The notes: generated from the letters alone by a model not told the origin. A stretch of DNA of 27,860 bases from a virus (IMGVR_UViG_3300037424_002918:1-27860); one strand, 5' to 3'. Counted from the stretch's first letter, positions 188 to 18,541 are shown. Program-made: numbers and translations.

Positions 188-766
188 TTATGCTTCCAGC
201 ATCCGCACCAGATCAGCCTTCGTCCTGAGCCTCGAGATGTGAAGTTCACTGACCCGATTGAACAGTGTCTTGCCGGTGAGCTGATCCAGATCCTCTTCTG
301 GATTCTTTTCCTTGATAATCCTGAGAAAGTCTGACTTGGTTCTTGCAATCCCGATCCCACGCTGTTTTGCCAGTGCTTGTAGTTGCTTCACTGTCATCTT
401 GGTGATGTCTTGTTCTCCTGCTTCAACATTCGGATCCTGTTCTTCTTCGTTCGATTCTGAATCAGAATCAGTAGTCTGTTCAGTCTGGGTTTCAGAATCA
501 GCTTGATCGATAGGTTCTAATGCTTGATCTGAATCGGTCGTCTCTGCAGCAGTCTCTTGTTCTGAGGGTTGTGTTTCCACCTCAGCTTGCGTTTCTGAAT
601 TCTGAACCAGGGCTACCATCGGGAAGGACACTGACACTCTCTGTCCATCCTCAAGTTCGACAGTCCATCCACGACGTTCCTTGCTAGTGATTGTACCGAC
701 CGAGTCCTTGAATTGACCAGCAGTGATCATTACCTGATCACCAATCTGCTTTTTCACTTTACTCAT
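188..766 (-). CDS. KOW-motif protein with acidic linker and two C-terminal Rho-N/SAP-like helix-extension-helix modules
   Basis: IGDQVMITAGQFKDSVGTI is a KOW motif; the linker is E/D/T/Q-rich; DITKMTVKQLQALAKQRGI..RTKSDFL and LDQLTGKTL..LRTKADLVRML resemble Rho-N modules; AGGAG SD upstream. Confidence 0.75.
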   Translation of the reverse strand: MSKVKKQIGDQVMITAGQFKDSVGTITSKERRGWTVELEDGQRVSVSFPMVALVQNSETQAEVETQPSEQETAAETTDSDQALEPIDQADSETQTEQTTDSDSESNEEEQDPNVEAGEQDITKMTVKQLQALAKQRGIGIARTKSDFLRIIKEKNPEEDLDQLTGKTLFNRVSELHISRLRTKADLVRMLEA

Positions 767-8440: not shown

Positions 8441-9127
8441 TCAAATCACCGGAACTTCAGTTTCTGTAAAGTGAACTACCGCACGGGTATGCGCCGGTTT
8501 CTGGGCGTTAATCGCTTCGATTATCACCTGCTGGTCAACTTCCATGCCTTGCGAATATGTGATGTGAATCCAGAAGTGGAAGGCAAGTGAAAGGTCACTG
8601 ATCGAATAGATCCTCGTCTGCCGGTATGCTTCATAGATACCGATATCATCCGCACTGAAAATATGCGAGACATTGACTTCCGCTTCTCTGGACTGGTCTT
8701 CACTATCCAGAATAATCCGCGCCTGATCATCAGCGTAATACTCGACAATCTGCTCACAGGTGATTCCAAAGATCTCTTCGATCAGGTATTTCATACCTGC
8801 CTTGGTGCCCAGAAATTGGTTGCGATAAGCCTGAGTCGAAATCCTTTCCAACAATGCAGAATCATTCTCACCGGACAATCGCCTGAGTCCCCTGTCGAAC
8901 GCATGCAAATCGAGGTCTGCCGTTCTCAATTCTGAGCTGTAATAGGGATCTGCTTCATGCCGAATGAGGAAATACCGCCTTAGTCGAGCTGTTAAAATGG
9001 CAATCTTCAACTCTTCCAGAACCAACCCGATCGAAACCAGCAATCCATATAACTTGGACTCATGTTTCTCCTTACACTTGCGCACAGATGGCAACAGCCA
9101 CCACATAAAGTCTGCAAAATTATTCAA
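8441..9127 (-). CDS. Baseplate wedge protein (P2 gpI / Mu gp48-like)
   Basis: LDLHAFDRGLRRL.GE.D..L..RI, GTKAGM and the terminal KPAHT motif; directly downstream of J. Confidence 0.8.
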   Translation of the reverse strand: MNNFADFMWWLLPSVRKCKEKHESKLYGLLVSIGLVLEELKIAILTARLRRYFLIRHEADPYYSSELRTADLDLHAFDRGLRRLSGENDSALLERISTQAYRNQFLGTKAGMKYLIEEIFGITCEQIVEYYADDQARIILDSEDQSREAEVNVSHIFSADDIGIYEAYRQTRIYSISDLSLAFHFWIHITYSQGMEVDQQVIIEAINAQKPAHTRAVVHFTETEVPVI

Positions 9128-10307
9128 TTGAGAATGTCTCCTTATTCACATCAAGGATCTGAACATTGGCAGCCGTTTCATCTCCCAGACTGCCATCGAT
9201 GCTGGCGTCCTGATAAGTTCTGTCCTTGATGCGATGTGAGATCACAATCTGGTCAAATACCAGGAACTGATCGACCGAAACATTGACATCCTGCCTGGGC
9301 GAATTAACCTTCAGATTGTAAACACCGGACACATCCATGATTTCATTGATCAGACGCGCAATTCTTAATCCCTCACCTAACTGCAGCCGACCTGAATAAT
9401 TATTGACTGCTTCACGAACTTTAGAATCAACCGTTTCTTGCGATGCATTCACATAGCGGATCACTTCCAGATCGAGGTCGATTGACCTGATTTCAGGCGC
9501 CAAAATTCTGACGTCGGCTGTCAACGGCTTGCGCGCTTTGATGCAGTGATGCACTTCATTGATCAGCTCCGCCGATGGAACGCCGTTCTCCCCCAGTATC
9601 ACCACTCCGACCGTACCTGGACCGAAGGGAAAATCATCCAGCACCGATGCTGCAACCACTCCCTGCACCGACAACGCCCAATTGCGATAAGCCTCGCGCG
9701 TGCCACCCAGTCCGAGTGTCTCCCATTTGCCAATGGCGCGTTCACGGAGTTGTTCATCGGATTCGGGATCGCTTCCTTCCTGGATCAGATAACCGGCGCT
9801 GTTGGTTACCGCATTTATTCCGGTCACTCGGGTGACCATCCGCGTAATCGTATCCTGCCCGACGTTCCAGGCTTTACCCGCTAACTCCGCTTCGGCGATC
9901 ACCTGGACAATGGTTTGATCTTCTTCAAGAACCGCTTCTGCAATGGTTATAAACCGGTAATCGTTGCCACTCGCATCCTTCTGTGATTTACAGATCGTAC
10001 CAACTGGGATGGATATATTCTGAGCTGCAGGTGTATTGCTTCTGAATGTCAGATTTACTTTCGCCTTGACCGCCTGTCTGCGGACGAGCCCCATTTCCCT
10101 CACCTTCAGATCGAGCCAGAAACCGGTTGCTGTCTGTACGAACGATTGCTGCATCACCGTCTTCACCAGTCCATATAGATCGGCAATCACTTTAGCGATC
10201 ACCTCCAACAGACCACGAATCGCAGCCGATGGGTTCAGATTGGTGAAGGGAGTGCGTACAACCAGTTCGGACATCAGATCGTCCAGGACTTCGTTAAAGG
10301 ATTTCAT
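9120..10307 (-). CDS. Baseplate J/gp47 family protein
   Basis: TATGFWLD, G.DPESDEQLRERA, GT..AY..WALSV.GV and GPGTVGV motifs. ATG 10307 is the likely native start; an in-frame GTG lies at 10313. Confidence 0.92.
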   Translation of the reverse strand: MKSFNEVLDDLMSELVVRTPFTNLNPSAAIRGLLEVIAKVIADLYGLVKTVMQQSFVQTATGFWLDLKVREMGLVRRQAVKAKVNLTFRSNTPAAQNISIPVGTICKSQKDASGNDYRFITIAEAVLEEDQTIVQVIAEAELAGKAWNVGQDTITRMVTRVTGINAVTNSAGYLIQEGSDPESDEQLRERAIGKWETLGLGGTREAYRNWALSVQGVVAASVLDDFPFGPGTVGVVILGENGVPSAELINEVHHCIKARKPLTADVRILAPEIRSIDLDLEVIRYVNASQETVDSKVREAVNNYSGRLQLGEGLRIARLINEIMDVSGVYNLKVNSPRQDVNVSVDQFLVFDQIVISHRIKDRTYQDASIDGSLGDETAANVQILDVNKETFSIE

Positions 10308-10315
10308 CTTCACTA

Positions 10316-10639
10316 TCAAATACCTTTCATTGCGACGATGAGCGGGAAACTTTTCAGGTTACTCATCCTTTCCATCCCCTTTTTGGAAAGACATTTGTTC
10401 TGATATCCCATCATCGCGCATGGGACGAGGATCGCGTGTTTTACTATAACCAGCGTGAGAAACTCTGTTCACTTCCCGCCCAATGGACAAGTGTTCTATC
10501 ACCAGAACCATTCGTTTTTGTAGCACGTGGGCGGTCACCTTTTCGTCTTGTTGATCTCTTGGAGTTATCTCGCTTACTACAGTCAATATCTGAAGGGGCA
10601 GATGCTCACAAAGCGAAACTTGACGCCGAGGATGTGTAA
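10316..10639 (+). CDS. DUF5372 (Y4bD/Y4pK)-like small protein; the conserved N-terminus has no start codon in the integrated state
   Basis: The frame is open from the left junction: SNTFHCDDERETFQVTHPFHPLFGK...SLPAQWTSV..P...GRSPFRLVDLLEL. The first GTG (10436) lies downstream of the THPFHPL motif. Family name is from recall. Confidence 0.65.
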   Translation, partial: SNTFHCDDERETFQVTHPFHPLFGKTFVLISHHRAWDEDRVFYYNQREKLCSLPAQWTSVLSPEPFVFVARGRSPFRLVDLLELSRLLQSISEGADAHKAKLDAEDV

Positions 10640-10679
10640 AGTGATTTATGCCGTAAGTGTAAAGTCTATTACGCCGTAT
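10634..10679 (+). repeat. Tandem 23-bp imperfect direct repeats, putative protein-binding sites
   Basis: GTGTAAAGTGATTTATGCCGTAA and GTGTAAAGTCTATTACGCCGTAT (18/23 identical); an inverted relative lies at 10781-10800. Confidence 0.65.
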
Positions 10680-10761
10680 AAGGTTCCAGCTCACTACATT
10701 ATGTCCCTTGATATATTGCTTGTTAATCATAGGTCTATTGGATATTTTCCTGGCAAAGGGG

Positions 10762-10791
10762 TTGACAATGCGTCATTGAAAGGCGTATATT
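10762..10791 (+). promoter_or_regulatory. Sigma70-type promoter for the HTH-recombinase operon
   Basis: TTGACA-18 nt-TATATT, about 40 nt upstream of the GGAG-preceded ATG at 10831. Confidence 0.65.
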
Positions 10792-10830
10792 ACTTAACAC
10801 ATAGTTGCAACATTGAACCTGGAGATGACA

Positions 10831-11301
10831 ATGATCCCGATAAAGACACCCGATCCCAAGCTGGAAGCATTGGTCAAGCAGCGGACACTCAATCCCAAGC
10901 CAGACTCGGTGAAGGCACCACTCTTTCAAGACAGCGACTTCTTCGATCCTCGCGACTTGATGCAGGTGAAGTACGAAATGCTGCGCCATGCCAAACAGGT
11001 TGGGAGTTCGGTCAAAGAAACAGCAGCATCCTTTGGTTTTTCTCGCGTCGCGTTCTATCAGATACGCCGAGAGTTCGAACAAAATGGACTGACGGGGCTT
11101 CTCCCGCGCTGCCGAGGTCCAAAGACCGCACACAAACTCACCGACGAAATCATGGATTTCATAAAACAAGCTCTCATCCAAGATTTTTCTTTGAAAACAC
11201 TCACTTTGGTGGAAATTGTCAAGGAGCGATTTGGGATAACCGTTCATCGACGCAGCATCGAACGAGCGCTGGCGCGACAGCAAAAAAAACTGCCTGCCTA
11301 A
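10831..11301 (+). CDS. Helix-turn-helix protein of the element
   Basis: FFDPRDLMQVKYEMLR, HTH SVKETAASFGFSRVAFYQ, GLLP..RGPK..HKLT, second HTH VHRRSIERAL; GGAG SD. Confidence 0.85.
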   Translation: MIPIKTPDPKLEALVKQRTLNPKPDSVKAPLFQDSDFFDPRDLMQVKYEMLRHAKQVGSSVKETAASFGFSRVAFYQIRREFEQNGLTGLLPRCRGPKTAHKLTDEIMDFIKQALIQDFSLKTLTLVEIVKERFGITVHRRSIERALARQQKKLPA

Positions 11302-11348
11302 CCTTGGATACTGCTCGGACATCAGTATCGTTCGCTGGACGTAGTCTG

Positions 11349-11597
11349 ATGGATGGCTACGAGGCATTGCGTAACCGGGCTATGCACAACGATGGCTCTT
11401 CTGGGGGGCTGTCATTATTCCTCACCCGCGGGATGGCTGTCTGGATGCGGGTCTGGAAAGAGCATGAACCGTCAAGAACGCGAGTGTTATCCACTAATGC
11501 AGACAAGGTGCAGGTGATGTTGCCAATTGATTTGCAGGATGATCTCGTGTCAGCACTCGTTGGTTTGGCAATAAACGTTCGAAAGGAAAGCAGATGA
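11349..11597 (+). CDS. Small element protein, possibly made as a -1 frameshift fusion to the HTH protein
   Basis: YEALR...GLSLFLTRGMAVWMRVW. Its stop overlaps the recombinase start (ATGA) and the frame is open back through the A8 run at 11282-11289. Confidence 0.65.
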   Translation: MDGYEALRNRAMHNDGSSGGLSLFLTRGMAVWMRVWKEHEPSRTRVLSTNADKVQVMLPIDLQDDLVSALVGLAINVRKESR

Positions 11598-13687
11598 TGA
11601 TAGATACAAACTCCAAAGTGACTTCTTTGCACCTCAAGCGGGATGCCTATTTGTATATCAGGCAATCCACGTTGCGACAAGTATTCGAGAATCAGGAAAG
11701 CACCAAACGTCAATATGCATTGCGCAATCGCGCCATTGCACTGGGTTGGTCTGACGACCAGTTGCAAGTCATCGACTCTGACCTCGGACATTCCGGGGCA
11801 TCTTCGGTCGATCGTGAAGGCTTCCAGAAACTGGTTGCTGAAGTTAGCATGGGACGAGCAGGGATCGTAATCGGCTTGGAGGTTTCGCGACTTGCGCGCA
11901 ACAACACCGACTGGCACCGACTGCTGGAAATCTGCGCCCTGTCCGACACTTTGATTCTCGACGAAGACGGATTTTACAATCCCAACGACTTTAATGATCG
12001 ATTGTTGTTGGGTTTGAAAGGCACGATGAGCGAAGCCGAACTGCATTTCATGCGTGCTCGACTGCGTGGCGGCGTACTGAGCAAGGCGCAACGGGGAGAA
12101 TTTCGCAGCAGACTGCCAACGGGATTTATATATGACGACCAGGGTAACGTTCAGCTGCATCCTGATAAACAGGTGAGGCAGGCAATTGCTCTCCTCTTTG
12201 CGACTTATCGCCGAACCGGTTCGGGATCGGCTACAGTAAAATTTTTCCGCGAACAGAATTTTCTTTTCCCACGGCGGGTGTATTCTAAACTCGATAAAAA
12301 TGAACATTATTGGAAGCCTCTTACTCATAACCTGGTTTTGTGGCTTTTGCATAATCCCCGCTATGCCGGTGCATACTTCTATGGGCGAACTCGCTACTCC
12401 AGGTGTATCGACGGAGGTAGTTCGACCAAAAAACTGCCCCGCGACGAGTGGCATACCTTGATTCCTGACGCGCATGACGGCTATATTACCTGGGAGGAAT
12501 ACGAAAACAATCAACGACAGCTTCTTGCATCCGCCCAAGCGTATGGATTGGATCGACGCAAAAGTCCACCACGCGAAGGACCAGCGTTGCTTCAGGGAAT
12601 TGTGGTCTGCGGCGTTTGTGGGAAGAGGATGAGCGTTAAGTATCGCTCGCGCGGAGACAAAACCATTCCGCTCTACAGGTGCGAGCGCGATGCTATACAA
12701 TACAGCAGTCAGGCTTGCCAGAGCATATTGGGAGATGAAATTGACATGGAAGTAAGTCGTCTTCTGTTGGAGACAATTACTCCATTGGCAATGGAAGCTG
12801 CTCTGGCTGTGCAGCAAGAACTTTCCGCTCGGTTGAATGAAACTGACCGACTCCGTATGCAACAGGTTGAGCGAGTGCGCCATGAAGCGGATCTCGCAAG
12901 ACGAAGATACATGCTGGTTGACCCAGATAACCGTCTGGTGGCCGATACGCTCGAAGCCGATTGGAACGAGAAACTTCGTGCGCTTCGTGATGCGAAGGAT
13001 GCTTGCGAGAAACGGCGCATTGAAGATCAGATACAAGTGAACGAAGAAGTGTGTAGTCGAGTTAAAGCGTTGACGACCGATTTCCCGCGACTTTGGAATG
13101 ATCCAAACACCTCGGACCGCGACCGCAAGCGGATTGTTCGGTTGTTGATCAATGATGTCACACTGGTCAGGGAGGACAATATTATTGTGCACGTTCGATT
13201 CAAGGGCGGCACAACAACCACCTTGACGTTGCACAAACCAAAGCAAGTTCAAGAGAAGTACCGTACGCTGCCTGAGGTGATAGAACAGATTAGTGACCTT
13301 GCAAAACAACACACGGATGGACAGATAGCGAAAATTCTCAATGAGCGCGGACACCGCTCGGGGAGAGGGTGTGCGTTCAATCCTAATATTATAAAGAATC
13401 TTCGCCAGCGTTACGATGTTAAAAGTTATTATGAGCATCTGCGTGAATCCGGAATGCTTAATGCAATAGAAATGGCAGCTCGTTTGGGAACTTGCCGCGA
13501 AACAGTTTGGGCATGGAGATCGGCAGGGCTGTTGAAGGCACATATTGCAAATGAAAAGAATGAATACCTTTTTGAGCCGCCGGGCATAAACTCACCTGTC
13601 AAACATTCGGGCAAGAAACTTTCCAAATATCTCCAGGATGCGGAGTTTTCATCCAATCCAATCATTAGGGAGCAGTATGAAGTATAG
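11594..13687 (+). CDS. Large serine recombinase (resolvase, recombinase, Zn-ribbon, coiled coil, extra C-terminal HTH)
   Basis: Catalytic AYLYIRQS, DLGHSG, VSRLARN, LHNPRYAG, CGVCG..YRC..C, and C-terminal LNAIEMAARLGTCRETVWAWRSAGLL. Confidence 0.95.
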   Translation: MMIDTNSKVTSLHLKRDAYLYIRQSTLRQVFENQESTKRQYALRNRAIALGWSDDQLQVIDSDLGHSGASSVDREGFQKLVAEVSMGRAGIVIGLEVSRLARNNTDWHRLLEICALSDTLILDEDGFYNPNDFNDRLLLGLKGTMSEAELHFMRARLRGGVLSKAQRGEFRSRLPTGFIYDDQGNVQLHPDKQVRQAIALLFATYRRTGSGSATVKFFREQNFLFPRRVYSKLDKNEHYWKPLTHNLVLWLLHNPRYAGAYFYGRTRYSRCIDGGSSTKKLPRDEWHTLIPDAHDGYITWEEYENNQRQLLASAQAYGLDRRKSPPREGPALLQGIVVCGVCGKRMSVKYRSRGDKTIPLYRCERDAIQYSSQACQSILGDEIDMEVSRLLLETITPLAMEAALAVQQELSARLNETDRLRMQQVERVRHEADLARRRYMLVDPDNRLVADTLEADWNEKLRALRDAKDACEKRRIEDQIQVNEEVCSRVKALTTDFPRLWNDPNTSDRDRKRIVRLLINDVTLVREDNIIVHVRFKGGTTTTLTLHKPKQVQEKYRTLPEVIEQISDLAKQHTDGQIAKILNERGHRSGRGCAFNPNIIKNLRQRYDVKSYYEHLRESGMLNAIEMAARLGTCRETVWAWRSAGLLKAHIANEKNEYLFEPPGINSPVKHSGKKLSKYLQDAEFSSNPIIREQYEV

Positions 13688-13694
13688 TCCTTGA

Positions 13695-14117
13695 TCATGA
13701 CTGGATTACAGCCTCCGTATCGTTCACACCGAATCCCCAGACGATTGATTCGGAATTTCTCCCGTTTACCGGTCTAAAATTGATCTCGAACCTCTTTTCT
13801 TCAGTGTCAAACACCAACGGCTTAATCGAGATCGAGATGTCCTCAATGCGTGGTTCTGCTTCGAGTGCATAACGCAAATAGCGGATCGCTATTGCCCGGT
13901 TCAGAGGCGTATCAGGCGCGCCGAGCAACCTGCCAATACCGCATCCCCAAACCGAGTGAGCGAACAGGTCGCCTGGTAAAGTCTCCAATCGATCCCGGAT
14001 ATCCTGCAGCAGGCAGTTGCTACCCTGCACACTCAGCAGGTCACCGGTTGAACTGACGACAAGATCGCCATCCTCATCGAAGAGGATATCGTTTCCTAGA
14101 TAATCTTCCCGTATCAT
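13695..14117 (-). CDS. Baseplate wedge protein (gp25/gpW-like)
   Basis: GDL..V.G..CLLQDIRDRLET..G.LF.H..WG and AL..EPRI motifs; ATG 14117 overlaps the upstream stop (ATGA). Confidence 0.85.
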   Translation of the reverse strand: MIREDYLGNDILFDEDGDLVVSSTGDLLSVQGSNCLLQDIRDRLETLPGDLFAHSVWGCGIGRLLGAPDTPLNRAIAIRYLRYALEAEPRIEDISISIKPLVFDTEEKRFEINFRPVNGRNSESIVWGFGVNDTEAVIQS

Positions 14118-14320
14118 TTGACCTCGCATTCGATTGGATTTGGATTGGGAACACCCAATGCCGGAGCGCCACCTCCGCCGGTCACCTGAGTGATCACCTG
14201 TGATACAGGAATCTTCACTTCGAGGTTATCGACAATTGCCTTGGCTAGCTTTTCACAAAATGCATCGATGTTGTCGATGTTCTGGATGGCGGCTTTAAGA
14301 GTTTCTCCGGTTAATGCCAT
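14114..14320 (-). CDS. Small baseplate-region hypothetical protein
   Basis: 68 aa with AGGA SD, coupled to the gp25-like gene. Confidence 0.7.
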   Translation of the reverse strand: MALTGETLKAAIQNIDNIDAFCEKLAKAIVDNLEVKIPVSQVITQVTGGGGAPALGVPNPNPIECEVK

Positions 14321-14337: not shown

Positions 14338-14416
14338 ATCCATTTTCTCATCCAATTATATCCATTTAGCTTGACTTTCCCCTCATAATTGGATATAATT
14401 GGATGAGTAAATGGAT
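14338..14416 (+). promoter_or_regulatory. fic promoter framed by a 27-bp inverted repeat
   Basis: TTGACT (14371-14376)-17 nt-TATAAT (14394-14399); arms 14338-14364 and 14390-14416 are complementary at 26/27 positions. Confidence 0.85.
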
Positions 14417-15457
14417 ATCCAAAAATGGAAAACTATGAAAAACAAGCTTCTAAAGCAGATCGCCGAGATTGACGAGTTTAAAGGTTTCTGGAAGGGCTTA
14501 AGCTCCTTTCCCATCGAAACTCTTTCAAAACTGCGTGTTCTCGCCACGATCGAATCTATTGGTTCTTCTACTCGCATCGAAGGAGCGAAGCTCTCTGACC
14601 GCGAAGTAGACGCGCTACTGTCAGGTCTCATGCCATCCTCATTTCGCAACCGGGACGAGGAAGAAGTTGCGGGATATGCTGATGTCATGAAACTGATTCA
14701 TGAGTCCTACAACGACATTGATCTTACAGAAAACAACATCAAGTACCTTCACAAGGTGCTCTTGAATCATTCGTCCAAGGATCAGTGGCATATCGGGAAT
14801 TACAAGAAACAACCCAATCATGTTGCTGCCTTTGACGAAACAGGCAGACAGATCGGTATCGTTTTTGAGACCACTTCGCCTGCAGACACTCCGCGCGAAA
14901 TGGAATCTCTTGTTTCGAATACAACAAAGCTTCTGAAAGAAGGTGAACTCCATCCTCTACTCATTATTGCTGATTTCATTCTTCACTTTCTGGCAATCCA
15001 TCCATTCCAGGACGGCAACGGTCGTTTGTCGCGTATTCTGACCAATCTTCTACTCCTGAGATTCGGCTACGAATACGTCCAATACAGCTCACTGGAGCGG
15101 GTGGTTGAAGCCAACAAAGAGCAATATTATTCATCCCTGCGAACCTCGCAGAATGCGCTTAAAGTGCCAGAAGCTGATACAAGCGTCTGGACTGAATTCT
15201 TCCTCGAAATGCTCAAGAAGCAGAAAGATCTCCTCGCCCAAAAAATCGAGAGAGAACGCAAGATGTCAGTCCGTTCCAAATTGTCCAATGAAATCTTGAG
15301 TTATACCGAAGAACAGGGACGTGTCACTGTAGCCGGGCTCGCTCAGGCTCTTGACACCAACCGCAATACCATTAAGACTCATCTGCAAAAACTCGTCGAT
15401 GAAGGTTTGTTAGCTTTGCATGGTAAAGGACGCGGTTCTTACTACACACCCCAATGA
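14411..15457 (+). CDS. fic: Fic family AMP-transferase with an N-terminal inhibitory motif and C-terminal winged HTH
   Basis: Canonical HPFQDGNGRLSR; STRIEG matches (S/T)xxxE(G/N); C-terminal VTVAGLAQALDTNRNTIKTHLQKLVDEGLL..HGKGRGSYY. Alternative start at 14435. Confidence 0.95.
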   Translation: MDIQKWKTMKNKLLKQIAEIDEFKGFWKGLSSFPIETLSKLRVLATIESIGSSTRIEGAKLSDREVDALLSGLMPSSFRNRDEEEVAGYADVMKLIHESYNDIDLTENNIKYLHKVLLNHSSKDQWHIGNYKKQPNHVAAFDETGRQIGIVFETTSPADTPREMESLVSNTTKLLKEGELHPLLIIADFILHFLAIHPFQDGNGRLSRILTNLLLLRFGYEYVQYSSLERVVEANKEQYYSSLRTSQNALKVPEADTSVWTEFFLEMLKKQKDLLAQKIERERKMSVRSKLSNEILSYTEEQGRVTVAGLAQALDTNRNTIKTHLQKLVDEGLLALHGKGRGSYYTPQ

Positions 15458-16921: not shown

Positions 16922-17830
16922 ATGATAACTGTAAAAGAACAAAATTTCGGCGTTGAAATCGAGCTCGTCGGAGCGCCAAGACGCAGCATCGCCGACGCGG
17001 TCGCTGCAGGCTTAGGCGGACGGGTCACCGCCACGCACCGAACAGGATACGACGCCACTATCGTTACCGACCAACAGGGTCGGGAGTGGAGCATCCAGAA
17101 CGACAGTTCCATCCCCGTGGTCAACGGCTACAAGGGCTCTGAAATCGTAACGCCGGTATTGACTTATGACGATATCGATCTGCTGCAGAACGTGATTCGC
17201 ACGGTCAGAGCCACACGCGCTAAAGCCCATAATGATTGCGCTATCCATATTCACGTGGATGCCTCACAGCACGACACTAAATCCCTGTCGATCCTCGCCA
17301 AAATGGTTTACAAGAACGAGGACATGATCTTCGACGCCCTGCAGGTGCATCCTGATCGCCGCCGCAGATATACCCGCCCGATGGATGATGATTTCATTGA
17401 CAAGGTTGCCAAACGCAGACCACGCTCGAAGCAAAAGCTAAACGAGATGTGGTTCGGACAATACAATCCCAATCCTGCTCACTACGAAGGGCATCGTTAT
17501 CACGGACTCAATCTCAACAACCTCTGGCGCTCAATCGGCACCGTCGAACTACGATACTTCAACTCGACACTGCATGCCGGTAAGATCAAGAGCTACATTC
17601 AGCTCTGCCTGGCATTATCAGCCAAGGCTTTGAACGCACGCTCCGCCAGCCACCGGAAAATCTCGACCGACAATCCCAAATTCAACTTCCGTGTCTGGCT
17701 AGTCTCGACCCTCGGCATGAAGGGTGATGAGTTCAAAACCGCACGCTATCACTTGACCAGATACCTGCCCGGCAACAGCGCCTGGCGGTATGGACGACCG
17801 ACAACTTCAAACGGCAGCGCAGCATCATGA
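16922..17830 (+). CDS. Amidoligase family protein (COOH-NH2 ligase, Amidoligase_2-like)
   Basis: FGVEIEL, W.I..DSSI, EIVTPVL, CAIHIHV, RYHGLNL and TVELRYFNSTL motifs. Confidence 0.92.
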   Translation: MITVKEQNFGVEIELVGAPRRSIADAVAAGLGGRVTATHRTGYDATIVTDQQGREWSIQNDSSIPVVNGYKGSEIVTPVLTYDDIDLLQNVIRTVRATRAKAHNDCAIHIHVDASQHDTKSLSILAKMVYKNEDMIFDALQVHPDRRRRYTRPMDDDFIDKVAKRRPRSKQKLNEMWFGQYNPNPAHYEGHRYHGLNLNNLWRSIGTVELRYFNSTLHAGKIKSYIQLCLALSAKALNARSASHRKISTDNPKFNFRVWLVSTLGMKGDEFKTARYHLTRYLPGNSAWRYGRPTTSNGSAAS

Positions 17831-18276
17831 AAAAAGAAACCATCATCTACTTTGCCTATGGCGCTAACCTCAATCGGGAAGGCATGGAAAATCGCTGTCC
17901 GGGCAACAAACCACTCTGCCGTGCTGTCCTCAAGAACTATCGACTCATATTCAAGAGCGTCGCCGATATCGAGGAAGCAACGAATCATAACGTGCATGGC
18001 GCATTATATGAGATTACCAAAGAGCATTTACGATCCCTCGACCGCTTTGAAGGATATCCCAGGCTTTACATCCGCAAAACCGTTCCCGTCATCACTGAAG
18101 ATGGCAGGGAAATCAAAGCCATCATTTACCAGATGAACGATCGCAACCAATACGCATCCCCTTACCGGGGATACCTGAACACCATTCTGTTAGGCTGCCT
18201 TCAATGGCAATTGCCTGAAGAATACATTCAGTACATAGTCACAAGAGCCACCGAACCAGATTTTGGAGAACTGTAA
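17827..18276 (+). CDS. Gamma-glutamylcyclotransferase (AIG2-like)
   Basis: YFAYGANL, VHGALYEI and LDRFEGYP.LY with the catalytic Glu; ATGA overlap with the amidoligase. Confidence 0.92.
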   Translation: MKKETIIYFAYGANLNREGMENRCPGNKPLCRAVLKNYRLIFKSVADIEEATNHNVHGALYEITKEHLRSLDRFEGYPRLYIRKTVPVITEDGREIKAIIYQMNDRNQYASPYRGYLNTILLGCLQWQLPEEYIQYIVTRATEPDFGEL

Positions 18277-18277
18277 A

Positions 18278-18541
18278 ATGAACACTCAAGAAGCAACCAA
18301 ACATGAAATCGTCAATGACGACACCGTCTTCGTTGGCACCGCAGTCGAGATCGTCCTCGATATGCGTGAGCAGGCATATTTTGAACGAGGCACGCCTGCC
18401 GAGTTTTATCTCGACCAGTTAGTGAACTTCATCAAGATGTTCGCTAATGAAACAATCACACTCTCCGGTAAAACTTTCGAAGAGAAAGCAGAGAGTTTTA
18501 TCCAGGAACTGCTGCGGATAGAGTATTTCAAAGAAGCATAA
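18278..18541 (+). CDS. Small acidic hypothetical protein, third gene of the amidoligase operon
   Basis: ATG 18278 with GGAG SD, 1 nt after the GGCT stop; 87 aa. Confidence 0.7.
   Translation: MNTQEATKHEIVNDDTVFVGTAVEIVLDMREQAYFERGTPAEFYLDQLVNFIKMFANETITLSGKTFEEKAESFIQELLRIEYFKEA

Follow-up and report, generated by a model that had tools for sequence, protein, structure and literature searches.

A large-serine-recombinase transposon in the baseplate J gene of a phage, carrying a gene predicted to be completed by its excision

The 27,860-nucleotide viral stretch analysed here (IMGVR_UViG_3300037424_002918, hereafter the window) very probably carries an intact member of an unnamed large-serine-recombinase transposon family, inserted at a TT dinucleotide within codon 3 of the gene for baseplate protein J. 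From its sequence, excision of the element is predicted to complete a DUF5372 gene that is split between the two ends of the integrated copy.

The element, its ends and its family

A block of plus-strand genes interrupts the minus-strand contractile-tail module of the phage between a gp25-like gene and baseplate J, and its ends were set at TT by comparison with approximately 200 related copies. The left TT crossover dinucleotide, where phage DNA meets the left end of the element, occupies 10303–10304 and the right one 13691–13692; the element body on the plus strand (10305–13690) measures 3,386 bp, or 3,388 bp with one TT, a length in keeping with that of its relatives (3,384 bp in L125, 3,388 bp in L127 and a family median of 3,347 bp). 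On one chromosome bearing eight near-identical copies (99.4–99.97% identical and set in six or more distinct flank contexts), identity was exact from TT-GGCCGAG... to ...AAGCC-TT and the copies differed just outside; one comparison within this set gave 95.7% identity, the alignment having run into similar flanks. Two further sets of three copies shared the same TT-to-TT span, TT abutted the left end in every copy, and in all three multi-copy sets the flanks diverged immediately beyond TT, as expected of a 2-bp core. The right-end motif, ...GCAGTATGAAG-N7-CC-TT, extends through CC-TT, gives way to unrelated flanks and was present in 135 of 164 loci. With a left-end profile derived from some 94 different ends of the family, 127 of 144 loci reached scores above 12, and the left TT of the window was located at 10303–10304; the HTH gene follows 529 bp later, a spacing shared with the three closest relatives (L125–L127). 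Since the search pattern for the right end and the profile for the left both already included TT, it is the multi-copy comparisons that give independent evidence for this dinucleotide.

Centred on TT, the two ends form imperfect inverted half-sites, three positions of which are symmetric in 99–100% of 72 elements. The first-pass annotation had stated that terminal inverted repeats are lacking, which in view of these half-sites holds only in part; a 2-bp direct repeat does lie at the ends, as it had proposed and as a serine-recombinase crossover would lead one to expect. Its TC dinucleotides are indeed present at 10316–10317 and 13688–13689, but the multi-copy sets and the profile place the junctions at TT, 13 bp away on the left and 3 bp away on the right, and alignment of other copies, which it had proposed as a check on the ends, showed that the shared sequence stops at TT and not at TC.

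Four conserved genes are arranged within the element in the order DUF5372, HTH, small ORF and large serine recombinase. The recombinase gene (11594–13687, plus strand) encodes a 697-aa protein with Resolvase (PF00239, 1e-18), Recombinase (PF07508, 4.6e-14) and Zn_ribbon_recom (PF13408, 1.3e-08) domains, all above their cut-offs, which upholds the earlier claim of a serine-recombinase element near J; it is the only recombinase of what had rightly been called a compact, little-characterised IS-like element. Residues R23-Q24-S25-T26 were invariant among 25 recombinase homologues, and S25 is presumably the nucleophile, as in the wider family. Scores against the NCBIfam models fell below the cut-offs for XisF (86 bits, cut-off 375) and for CcrA/B/C (19–38 bits, cut-offs 700–900), and the sole solved-structure match was to 3guv, an unnamed resolvase catalytic domain (E 7e-8). 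The GC content is 0.488 in the element and 0.492 and 0.496 in the phage flanks. No cargo gene was seen in the element.

At least 8,000 homologues of the recombinase were found, the best 120 being at least 57% identical and 664–710 aa in length, and approximately 4,900 matching stretches occurred in species-representative genomes of many phyla. Many of the homologues lie on contigs of approximately 3.3–3.7 kb. Family copies are also carried on plasmids of cultured Rhodococcus, Paraburkholderia, Mesorhizobium, Aromatoleum and Streptomyces. Neither RefSeq annotation nor the searched papers gave a name for the family; its proteins bear no more than labels such as 'recombinase family protein' or 'DUF5372 family protein', and the word DUF5372 is absent from all papers of the searched library. 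Among the 79 insertion sites of the family, DDE transposase genes were hit in at least 40, while the target in the window scored −21.2 against the family target profile, ranking 1,935th among the 3,309 TT sites in the phage, and the viral collection held only one other family match, a partial one. Judged by these sites, this very abundant family usually targets, and would preferentially disrupt, the transposase genes of other transposons rather than phages, and the insertion in the window is on an atypical target.

The interrupted baseplate J gene

Baseplate J in the window (9120–10313, minus strand; Baseplate_J PF04865, E 3.6e-51) has sheath, tape-measure, hub and wedge genes as its neighbours in the tail module, in keeping with its assignment. 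Only 9120–10304 of its reading frame is phage DNA. The left end of the element is the source of an in-frame start, either GTG at 10313–10311 or ATG at 10307–10305, with GAAAGG at 10328–10323, nine bases ahead of the GTG. The native start, at 13698–13696, overlaps the stop codon of the gp25-like gene (TGA, 13697–13695) as ATGA, and according to the ORF list and the sequence it now opens an 89-codon antisense ORF into the element (13429–13698, minus strand). The gp25-like baseplate wedge gene itself (13695–14129, minus strand) matched GPW_gp25 at E 3.9e-05, with 23.8 bits lying under the Pfam cut-off of 27.2, and PHROGs baseplate families at approximately 1e-10.

When the element was removed in silico, the minus strand read ATGATC-AA-ATCC, so that J begins M-I-K-S-F and the insertion point falls within its coding sequence at ATG ATC AA/A TCC. 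The uninterrupted related phage L205, whose J is 80% identical, reads ...ATGATCAGATC... with the same ATGA overlap, and both flanks in the window abut on the L205 sequence without gap or overlap. Among the matches listed, the MIKSF N-terminus was found in at least 18 of the 396-aa J homologues, and the eight closest of those listed begin with MIKSF (six), MIRSF (one) or MTKSF (one), whereas the form in the window is 395 aa long and begins MKSF. The ATGA overlap in the related phage and the MIKSF homologues therefore place the insertion in codon 3 of J, and not between a Shine-Dalgarno sequence and the J start as previously proposed; the empty site predicted under that proposal differs from these relatives, and the well-spaced RBS of its reconstruction is mostly element sequence. 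What does stand is the proposal that the phage gene would be made whole again by precise excision: the flanks would join into the gp25-J overlap and MIKSF, and J would likely be restored exactly. The interruption is reversible in principle, and the products of excision can be predicted to the base, namely a circle junction ...AGTCC-TT-CATCTTC... and an empty site ...GGAT-TT-GATCAT...; an exact search of the viral collection for the latter returned no match.

In the integrated state J would be severed from its native, translationally coupled start, and it would probably still be translated from the element's chance GTG or ATG with the preceding GAAAGG. The substitute start is particular to the window copy and is absent in L125–L127, so it may be a product of chance. 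An outward promoter-like site directed at J (TTAACA-17-CATAAT, 10698–10726, minus strand; 10/12 in a consensus scan, a pattern match only) was observed, the minus strand of the element showed no terminator-like site, and the remaining tail genes in the window are all open. The insertion is therefore better taken for a parasitic hit, tolerated or damaging, on an atypical target than for an evolved switch.

The divided DUF5372 gene and competing readings

The body of the DUF5372 gene (10304–10639, plus strand) comprises 111 codons and a stop, is open from the left end of the element and matched Pfam DUF5372 over positions 1–77 of the 78-position profile (E 2.7e-23; 82.2 bits against a cut-off of 25). 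Its frame is the one conserved across the family and was open from TT in 82/82 non-redundant elements, with the conserved DUF5372 motif exactly 20 codons past TT in 80 of them; in the window copy, no ATG, GTG or TTG lies between TT and this H-P-F-H-P motif. At the right end (13668–13692, plus strand), GGGAG at 13668–13672 is followed by ATG at 13677–13679 and the first five codons of a frame that, while the element is integrated, stops at TGA 13692–13694. Only when the ends are joined do this start and its five codons come into frame with the DUF5372 body. Joined ends gave an in-frame start in all 82 elements (ATG in 60, GTG in 21 and an ATG one codon downstream in one) and a Shine-Dalgarno-like motif precedes the right-end start in 81, counts to be read as those of related sequences and not of independent trials. 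Conservation of the right-end motif is independent of where, and in which frame, the recombinase gene stops. A structure model of the DUF5372 protein suggests a small beta-barrel and a long helix, for which a structural search gave no significant match (best E 3.7e-3, TM 0.37).

In the mechanism that we propose, the recombinase would cross over at the TT of both junctions and release a circle, leaving the phage with an intact gp25-J overlap, and the element would move by precise excision, passage through the circle and re-insertion. On the circle the DUF5372 gene would become complete and be translated, and its product would probably work with the recombinase at this stage, either favouring re-integration or reporting excision. 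We tentatively suggest, as a plausible though far from secure reading, that this undescribed IS family of many phyla senses its own topology, such that DUF5372 made from the circle only would steer re-integration, with J reversibly interrupted. If this is true, DUF5372 would act as a commitment or directionality factor whose gene spans the site of recombination, and a gene present only on the excised form would serve as a built-in excision reporter and be a candidate for a novel kind of factor controlling large serine recombinases, enzymes in wide use for genome engineering.

Four other readings were weighed against this one. That of the first-pass annotation, an element at 10318–13689 with a TC core, lying between the J RBS and its start and acting as an excision switch for tail assembly, draws on the TC at both of its proposed junctions, on joined ends that are symmetric at 9/16 positions (a count that proved arithmetically right when checked by eye) and on the precedent of skin in sigK, SPbeta in spsM and gin in gerE, which the available text of the reports describes as serine-recombinase elements that split genes rebuilt by precise excision (PMC4191935, PMC5025042, PMC5595907). 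However, the family ends and the multi-copy comparisons put the crossover at TT, with a TC core the right-end ATG would miss the DUF5372 frame, and the relatives have the ATGA overlap of gp25 and J, the closest J homologues among the matches listed being 396 aa and starting MIKSF; together with the preference of the family for transposase genes and its single partial match elsewhere in the viral collection, this makes the reading very unlikely. For an excision switch gating tail assembly as such, the usual targets, the poor target score, the near absence from the viral collection and the J start that is kept render it less likely than a plain parasitic insertion. An assembly artefact, in which a repeated element was wrongly threaded into the phage contig, might be suspected of a family so highly repetitive in metagenomes, where many contigs are of element length; it is extremely improbable, given flanks that fit to the base into the gp25-J overlap and MIKSF, as those of a chimeric join would not.

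It is possible, albeit doubtful, that the same element with the same ends has killed the phage or prophage, with J and the downstream tail genes underexpressed and the contig representing a decaying provirus. The native coupled start of J now reads the antisense ORF, the late operon holds 3.4 kb of oppositely transcribed genes and the substitute start may be fortuitous, all of which would fit such a fate; against it stand the open state of J and of every other tail gene in the window, the in-frame GTG/ATG with its GAAAGG, the lack of a terminator-like site on the minus strand of the element and the intactness of the element itself, which suggests a recent event. The last reading concerns DUF5372: its translation in the integrated state might begin at a non-canonical or internal codon, and the right-end GGAGG-ATG would then be conserved only as part of a recombinase binding site. 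RefSeq contains a shortened 'DUF5372 family protein' within an integrated copy, the right-end motif lies within the region of inverted half-sites, and sporadic GTG or TTG codons occur between TT and the motif in 31/82 elements, so an internal start may serve in those 31. Such a start is unlikely as a general explanation, as evidenced by the 51/82 elements (the window among them) that have no ATG, GTG or TTG ahead of the motif, by the uniformly open frame and near-constant motif spacing, and by a first base of the right-end start that is only ever A or G (ATG 60, GTG 21).

The accessory genes and comparison with known systems

The element with the divided gene also encodes an HTH protein of the transposase N-terminal type (10831–11301, plus strand; Pfam HTH_28 and HTH_23), with weak NCBIfam matches, below cut-off, to IS481 and IS630 N-termini; its gene precedes that of the recombinase in almost every family locus, and ahead of it in the window is a promoter-like site (TTGACA-18-TATATT, 10762–10791, plus strand; 11/12 in a consensus scan, again a pattern match only). 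Near its end, an A8 run (11282–11289, plus strand) constitutes a candidate −1 slippery site, and the small ORF that follows (82 aa; 11349–11597, plus strand) is shifted to the −1 frame with respect to the HTH gene, has a stop that overlaps the recombinase start and gave no match in Pfam or NCBIfam. Among 121 family loci, a run of six or more A residues was present in 102 and the downstream ORF was in the −1 frame in 101; in 99 this frame extended upstream without a stop to beyond the end of the HTH gene. At the sequence level this organisation, a slippery run and a −1 ORF open across the overlap, resembles that of IS3 and IS1, in which programmed −1 frameshifting occurs between the HTH ORF and the downstream ORF; unlike in those elements, the downstream ORF here encodes a short protein of no matched family and not a catalytic transposase, and the frameshift is a candidate one.

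The multi-copy distribution and the 2-bp repeats are consistent with excision to a circle and re-insertion of the Tn4451/Tn5397 type, a route that the recombinase alone would catalyse. Lyras and Rood reportedly found in 2000 that the circle joint of the clostridial Tn4451/Tn4453 (TnpX) forms a promoter for the recombinase. The likeness to those transposons lies in a single large serine recombinase, a 2-bp end repeat and a circle joint that creates an expression element. The core of Tn4451 is GA, whereas that of the present element is TT; here, moreover, there is no cargo gene, an HTH gene with an A8 run is present, the targets are transposase genes, and the joint would supply an RBS, a start codon and five codons of the separate gene DUF5372 instead of a recombinase promoter.

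With skin, SPbeta and gin, as far as the available text describes them, the element shares the rebuilding of a split gene by precise excision, and gin likewise is not a phage. Those are single-copy, host-domesticated, developmentally timed elements of Firmicutes sporulation genes with a separate directionality factor (SprB, GirX), whereas the present element belongs to a multi-copy transposon family across phyla and interrupts a phage gene that keeps a substitute start codon. A gene that spans the recombination site and is whole only in the circle is known from the 'suicidal' integrases of archaeal elements of the SSV1/pTN3/pT26-2 type, where it is the gene of the tyrosine integrase that is split, an arrangement that the available text of the source describes as exclusive to archaea (PMC8371274). 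Like those, the present element carries a gene across its recombination site that is split on integration; in contrast to what is described there, its serine recombinase stays whole and it is a small accessory gene, in bacteria, that is split.

Gene content and termini of the element

The minus strand of the 27,860-bp window carries a contractile-tail structural module with major head, neck, sheath, tape measure, hub, wedge, baseplate J and fibre-like genes. A block of plus-strand genes sits between the gp25-like baseplate wedge gene (13695–14129, minus strand, a weak Pfam gp25 match) and the baseplate J gene (9120–10307, minus strand, Pfam Baseplate_J, E 3.6e-51). It includes a gene for a large serine recombinase of 697 aa (11594–13687, plus strand, Pfam Resolvase, Recombinase and Zn_ribbon_recom) and one for a helix-turn-helix (HTH) protein that Pfam assigns to the transposase N-terminal type (10831–11301, plus strand). 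Both the gene order and the Pfam domains confirm the first-pass annotation, which had recognized an element with a serine recombinase at this position. The recombinase scored below the cut-off of every named NCBIfam equivalog.

The ends of the element were defined by comparing repeated copies. Eight near-identical copies in one Bryobacterales chromosome share exact identity from TT|GGCCGAG... to ...GAAGCGTAAGCC|TT and diverge directly outside the TTs, where their flanks represent six or more different contexts; TT also bounds a three-copy subfamily in the same Bryobacterales genome and a three-copy set in another genome. The right end of the family is a conserved motif, GAGGTGCAGTATGAAG-N7-CC-TT, which varies in its distance and frame from the recombinase stop codon and is thus conserved as DNA rather than as protein. 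The right-end pattern matched 135 of 164 loci, and the left-end profile scored above 12 in 127 of 144; both search devices contained the TT, so independent proof of it comes from the multi-copy comparisons. In the window, the left-end profile selects the TT at 10303–10304, which leaves 529 bp before the HTH gene begins. This spacing recurs in the three closest relatives (L125–L127), and their left ends align with that of the window without gaps. The two ends form imperfect inverted half-sites centred on TT, with positions 19, 17 and 15 from the core symmetric in 99–100% of 72 distinct elements. Taken together, the copy comparison and the end motifs place the element at 10305–13690 between two TTs, giving a length of 3,388 bp when one TT is counted (L125, 3,384 bp; L127, 3,388 bp; family median, 3,347 bp). 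The TC dinucleotides previously proposed as junctions are present but lie 13 bp (left) and 3 bp (right) away from these ends, and the multi-copy sets end at TT. Among the eight Bryobacterales copies (L114–L121), L115 and L117 share both flanks, while L121 has the left flank of these two and the right flank of L118, which suggests either recombination between copies or duplication of host transposons that had already been hit.

A DUF5372 gene split between the two ends

Within the 530 bp that lead up to the HTH gene from the left, one plus-strand frame is conserved throughout the family and matches Pfam DUF5372 over its full length (E 2.7e-23). Two other readings of this region were rejected: that the left 500 bp are non-coding or encode an RNA, since DUF5372 is coded there and Rfam gave no match, and that a minus-strand ORF at 10359–10730 (123 aa) is a gene, since it had no Pfam match and no tblastn match in any related locus. 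In the window, the DUF5372 frame runs uninterrupted from base 10304, the first of the element, up to its stop at 10637–10639, and no ATG, GTG or TTG precedes its conserved H-P-F-H-P motif. The right-end motif, for its part, reads as a ribosome-binding site followed by a start codon and about five codons (GGGAG at 13668–13672 and ATG at 13677–13679, plus strand, in the window).

When the ends were joined over one TT, the right-end start fell in frame with DUF5372 in all 82 non-redundant elements, these being the ones with both ends defined, drawn from 105 loci. Of the 82, 60 start with ATG and 21 with GTG, and the remaining one has its ATG a codon further downstream; a Shine-Dalgarno-like sequence preceded the start in 81, and the conserved motif lay exactly 20 codons past the TT in 80. 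Fifty-one of these elements lack any candidate start between the TT and the motif. As integrated in the window, the copy has a right-end ATG that meets a TGA after five codons. Since start and body are in frame across the joined TT and the integrated ATG is stopped at that TGA, the gene is complete only on joined ends, i.e., in an excised circle or a tandem, from which we infer that DUF5372 is translated. The predicted fold of the protein is a five-stranded small barrel with a long helix (pLDDT 82.7); a fold search with this model gave no significant match, the best of the weak ones, which were to small beta-barrel domains, having E 3.7e-3.

The mechanism that we consider most likely is a cycle of excision, circle formation and reinsertion. 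The recombinase would recombine both junctions at TT and free a circle with the predicted junction ...GTATAGTCC-TT-CATCTTCAC...; the circle would complete DUF5372 and express it, presumably at this stage only; DUF5372 would probably act there alongside the recombinase, and the circle would then re-insert at another TT site. We count Tn4451/Tn4453, in which the circle joint reportedly forms a promoter, among the closest known systems. The gene-intervening elements skin, SPbeta and gin (PMC4191935, PMC5025042 and PMC5595907) also belong there, as do the archaeal "suicidal" integrases, whose integration splits the integrase's own gene (PMC8371274).

A second feature of the coding region concerns the end of the HTH gene. 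A run of at least six A residues occurs within its last 45 nt in 102 of 121 distinct loci (A8 in the window, 11282–11289); 101 of the 121 have the small ORF that follows in the -1 frame, and in 99 that frame is open back over the HTH stop. This arrangement resembles the frameshift fusion of IS3 and IS1, and the sequence pattern suggests a fusion by programmed frameshifting or transcriptional slippage. The window also holds a single open frame of 356 codons (10527–11597, plus strand), -1 to the HTH gene, which spans the whole of that gene and ends as the small ORF; its length far exceeds what the frameshift model needs and is unusual at 49% GC.

Spread and targets of the family

Single-protein scans of viral, genome and metagenome collections returned no close recombinase relatives; relatives came from alignment-based scans and from a scan with the closest recombinase homologue (P0002, 89% identical), to which the nearest copies compared are 73–75% identical. 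There are at least 8,000 recombinase homologues, the best 120 of which are all at least 57% identical and 664–710 aa long. Many homologues lie on contigs of about 3.3–3.7 kb, a size typical of repeats at which assemblies break. With one genome taken for each species, an alignment-based scan gave at least 606 relatives, with an estimated total of about 4,900 stretches, and the hosts among the matches listed were Acidobacteriota, Planctomycetota, Proteobacteria, Actinomycetota, Chloroflexota and others, together with one archaeal MAG. In the viral collection, the alignment-based scan found just two further matches, a partial one with 54% identity and a distant one with 23%. Cultured strains of Rhodococcus, Paraburkholderia, Mesorhizobium, Aromatoleum and Streptomyces have plasmid-borne copies of the family, for instance Rhodococcus jostii RHA1 (NC_008269.1), Rhodococcus opacus (NZ_CP093381.1) and Aromatoleum aromaticum EbN1 (NC_006824.1). 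The annotations of the plasmid copies go no further than "recombinase family protein", "helix-turn-helix domain-containing protein", "DUF5372 family protein" or "hypothetical protein". Our search of openly accessible papers found no description of the family and no paper with the term "DUF5372". A contig of an archaeal MAG (Candidatus Argoarchaeum ethanivorans) encodes a family recombinase 56% identical and an HTH gene, and neither family end motif was recognized on it. A copy in a Gammaproteobacteria MAG chromosome measures 5,949 bp; its extra 2.8 kb or so between the HTH and recombinase genes probably reflects an insertion nested within the element.

Family members lie antisense to the genes that they enter: of 81 distinct right flanks, 79 have an ORF of 60 codons or more that abuts the junction on the opposite strand. 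Pfam assigned an rve integrase core to 38 of these 79 ORFs, DDE_Tnp_ISL3 to two, transposase-type HTH domains only to eight and citrate synthase to one, and gave nothing for 30. The rve match mostly stops at profile position 100–102 of 102, exactly at the junction, and the flank codons at the targets read ...GNPYDNA... or ...KG(K/R)VER... (loci L002–L204). Judged from these flanks, the family hits the DDE transposase genes of other transposons, in antisense orientation, directly after the rve core or in ISL3 transposases, and its members may be disruptors of other insertion sequences. The phage insertion site is atypical for the family; its score on the family target profile is -21.2 (family median, 23.8), with rank 1,935 among the 3,309 TT sites in the phage, and the profile does not explain the choice of this site.

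Insertion into baseplate J and its consequences

Joined over one TT, the flanks of the element read ...CAGTC-ATGATC-AA-ATCCTTTAAC... on the coding strand. The TGA that ends the gp25-like gene overlaps the ATG of J, which begins M-I-K-S-F-N-E-V-L-D-D-L-M. A related phage contig without the insertion (L205, J 80% identical) has ...ATATGATCAGATCTTTTT..., encoding M-I-R-S-F-S-E-I-L-D-D-L-M, with an ATGA overlap as well; both window flanks meet on this contig without a gap and without overlapping. A length of 396 aa is shared by nearly all of the closest J homologues, while the window form has 395 aa and starts with MKSF; among the 396-aa J proteins listed, the N-termini were MIKSF (18) and MIRSF (8) and, more rarely, others including VIKSL (4) and MIRTF (3). 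The ATGA overlap and the MIKSF starts of the relatives thus locate the insertion within codon 3 of J, and not between its ribosome-binding site and start codon as had been proposed. The native J start (13698–13696) now begins an antisense ORF of 89 codons. J stays open because the left end of the element happens to supply an in-frame GTG (10313–10311) and ATG (10307–10305), the GTG being preceded by GAAAGG nine bases ahead. This substitute start is absent in L125–L127 and hence specific to the window copy.

Excision would rebuild the gp25-J overlap to the base, leaving the predicted empty site ...AAAGGAT-TT-GATCATGAC..., for which an exact search of viral contigs gave no matches. The first-pass annotation had suggested that the element could be an excision switch for tail assembly. 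On the minus strand, a promoter-like site (10726–10698, 10 of 12 positions in a pattern match) points outward to J, and a pattern scan of the element's minus strand found no terminator-like site. We consider a switch less likely than an accidental insertion, either tolerated by the phage via the substitute J start or crippling it.

Other plus-strand genes interrupt the minus-strand tail module as well. One block (16922–18541) comprises an amidoligase-like gene, a gamma-glutamyl cyclotransferase-like gene and a 92-aa ORF, and another (14411–15457) encodes a 348-aa protein of PHROG 5978 (unknown function); both look like morons. At the left edge of the window, a 192-aa ORF (188–766, minus strand) has a weak endonuclease VII-like PHROG match (E 8.5e-06).
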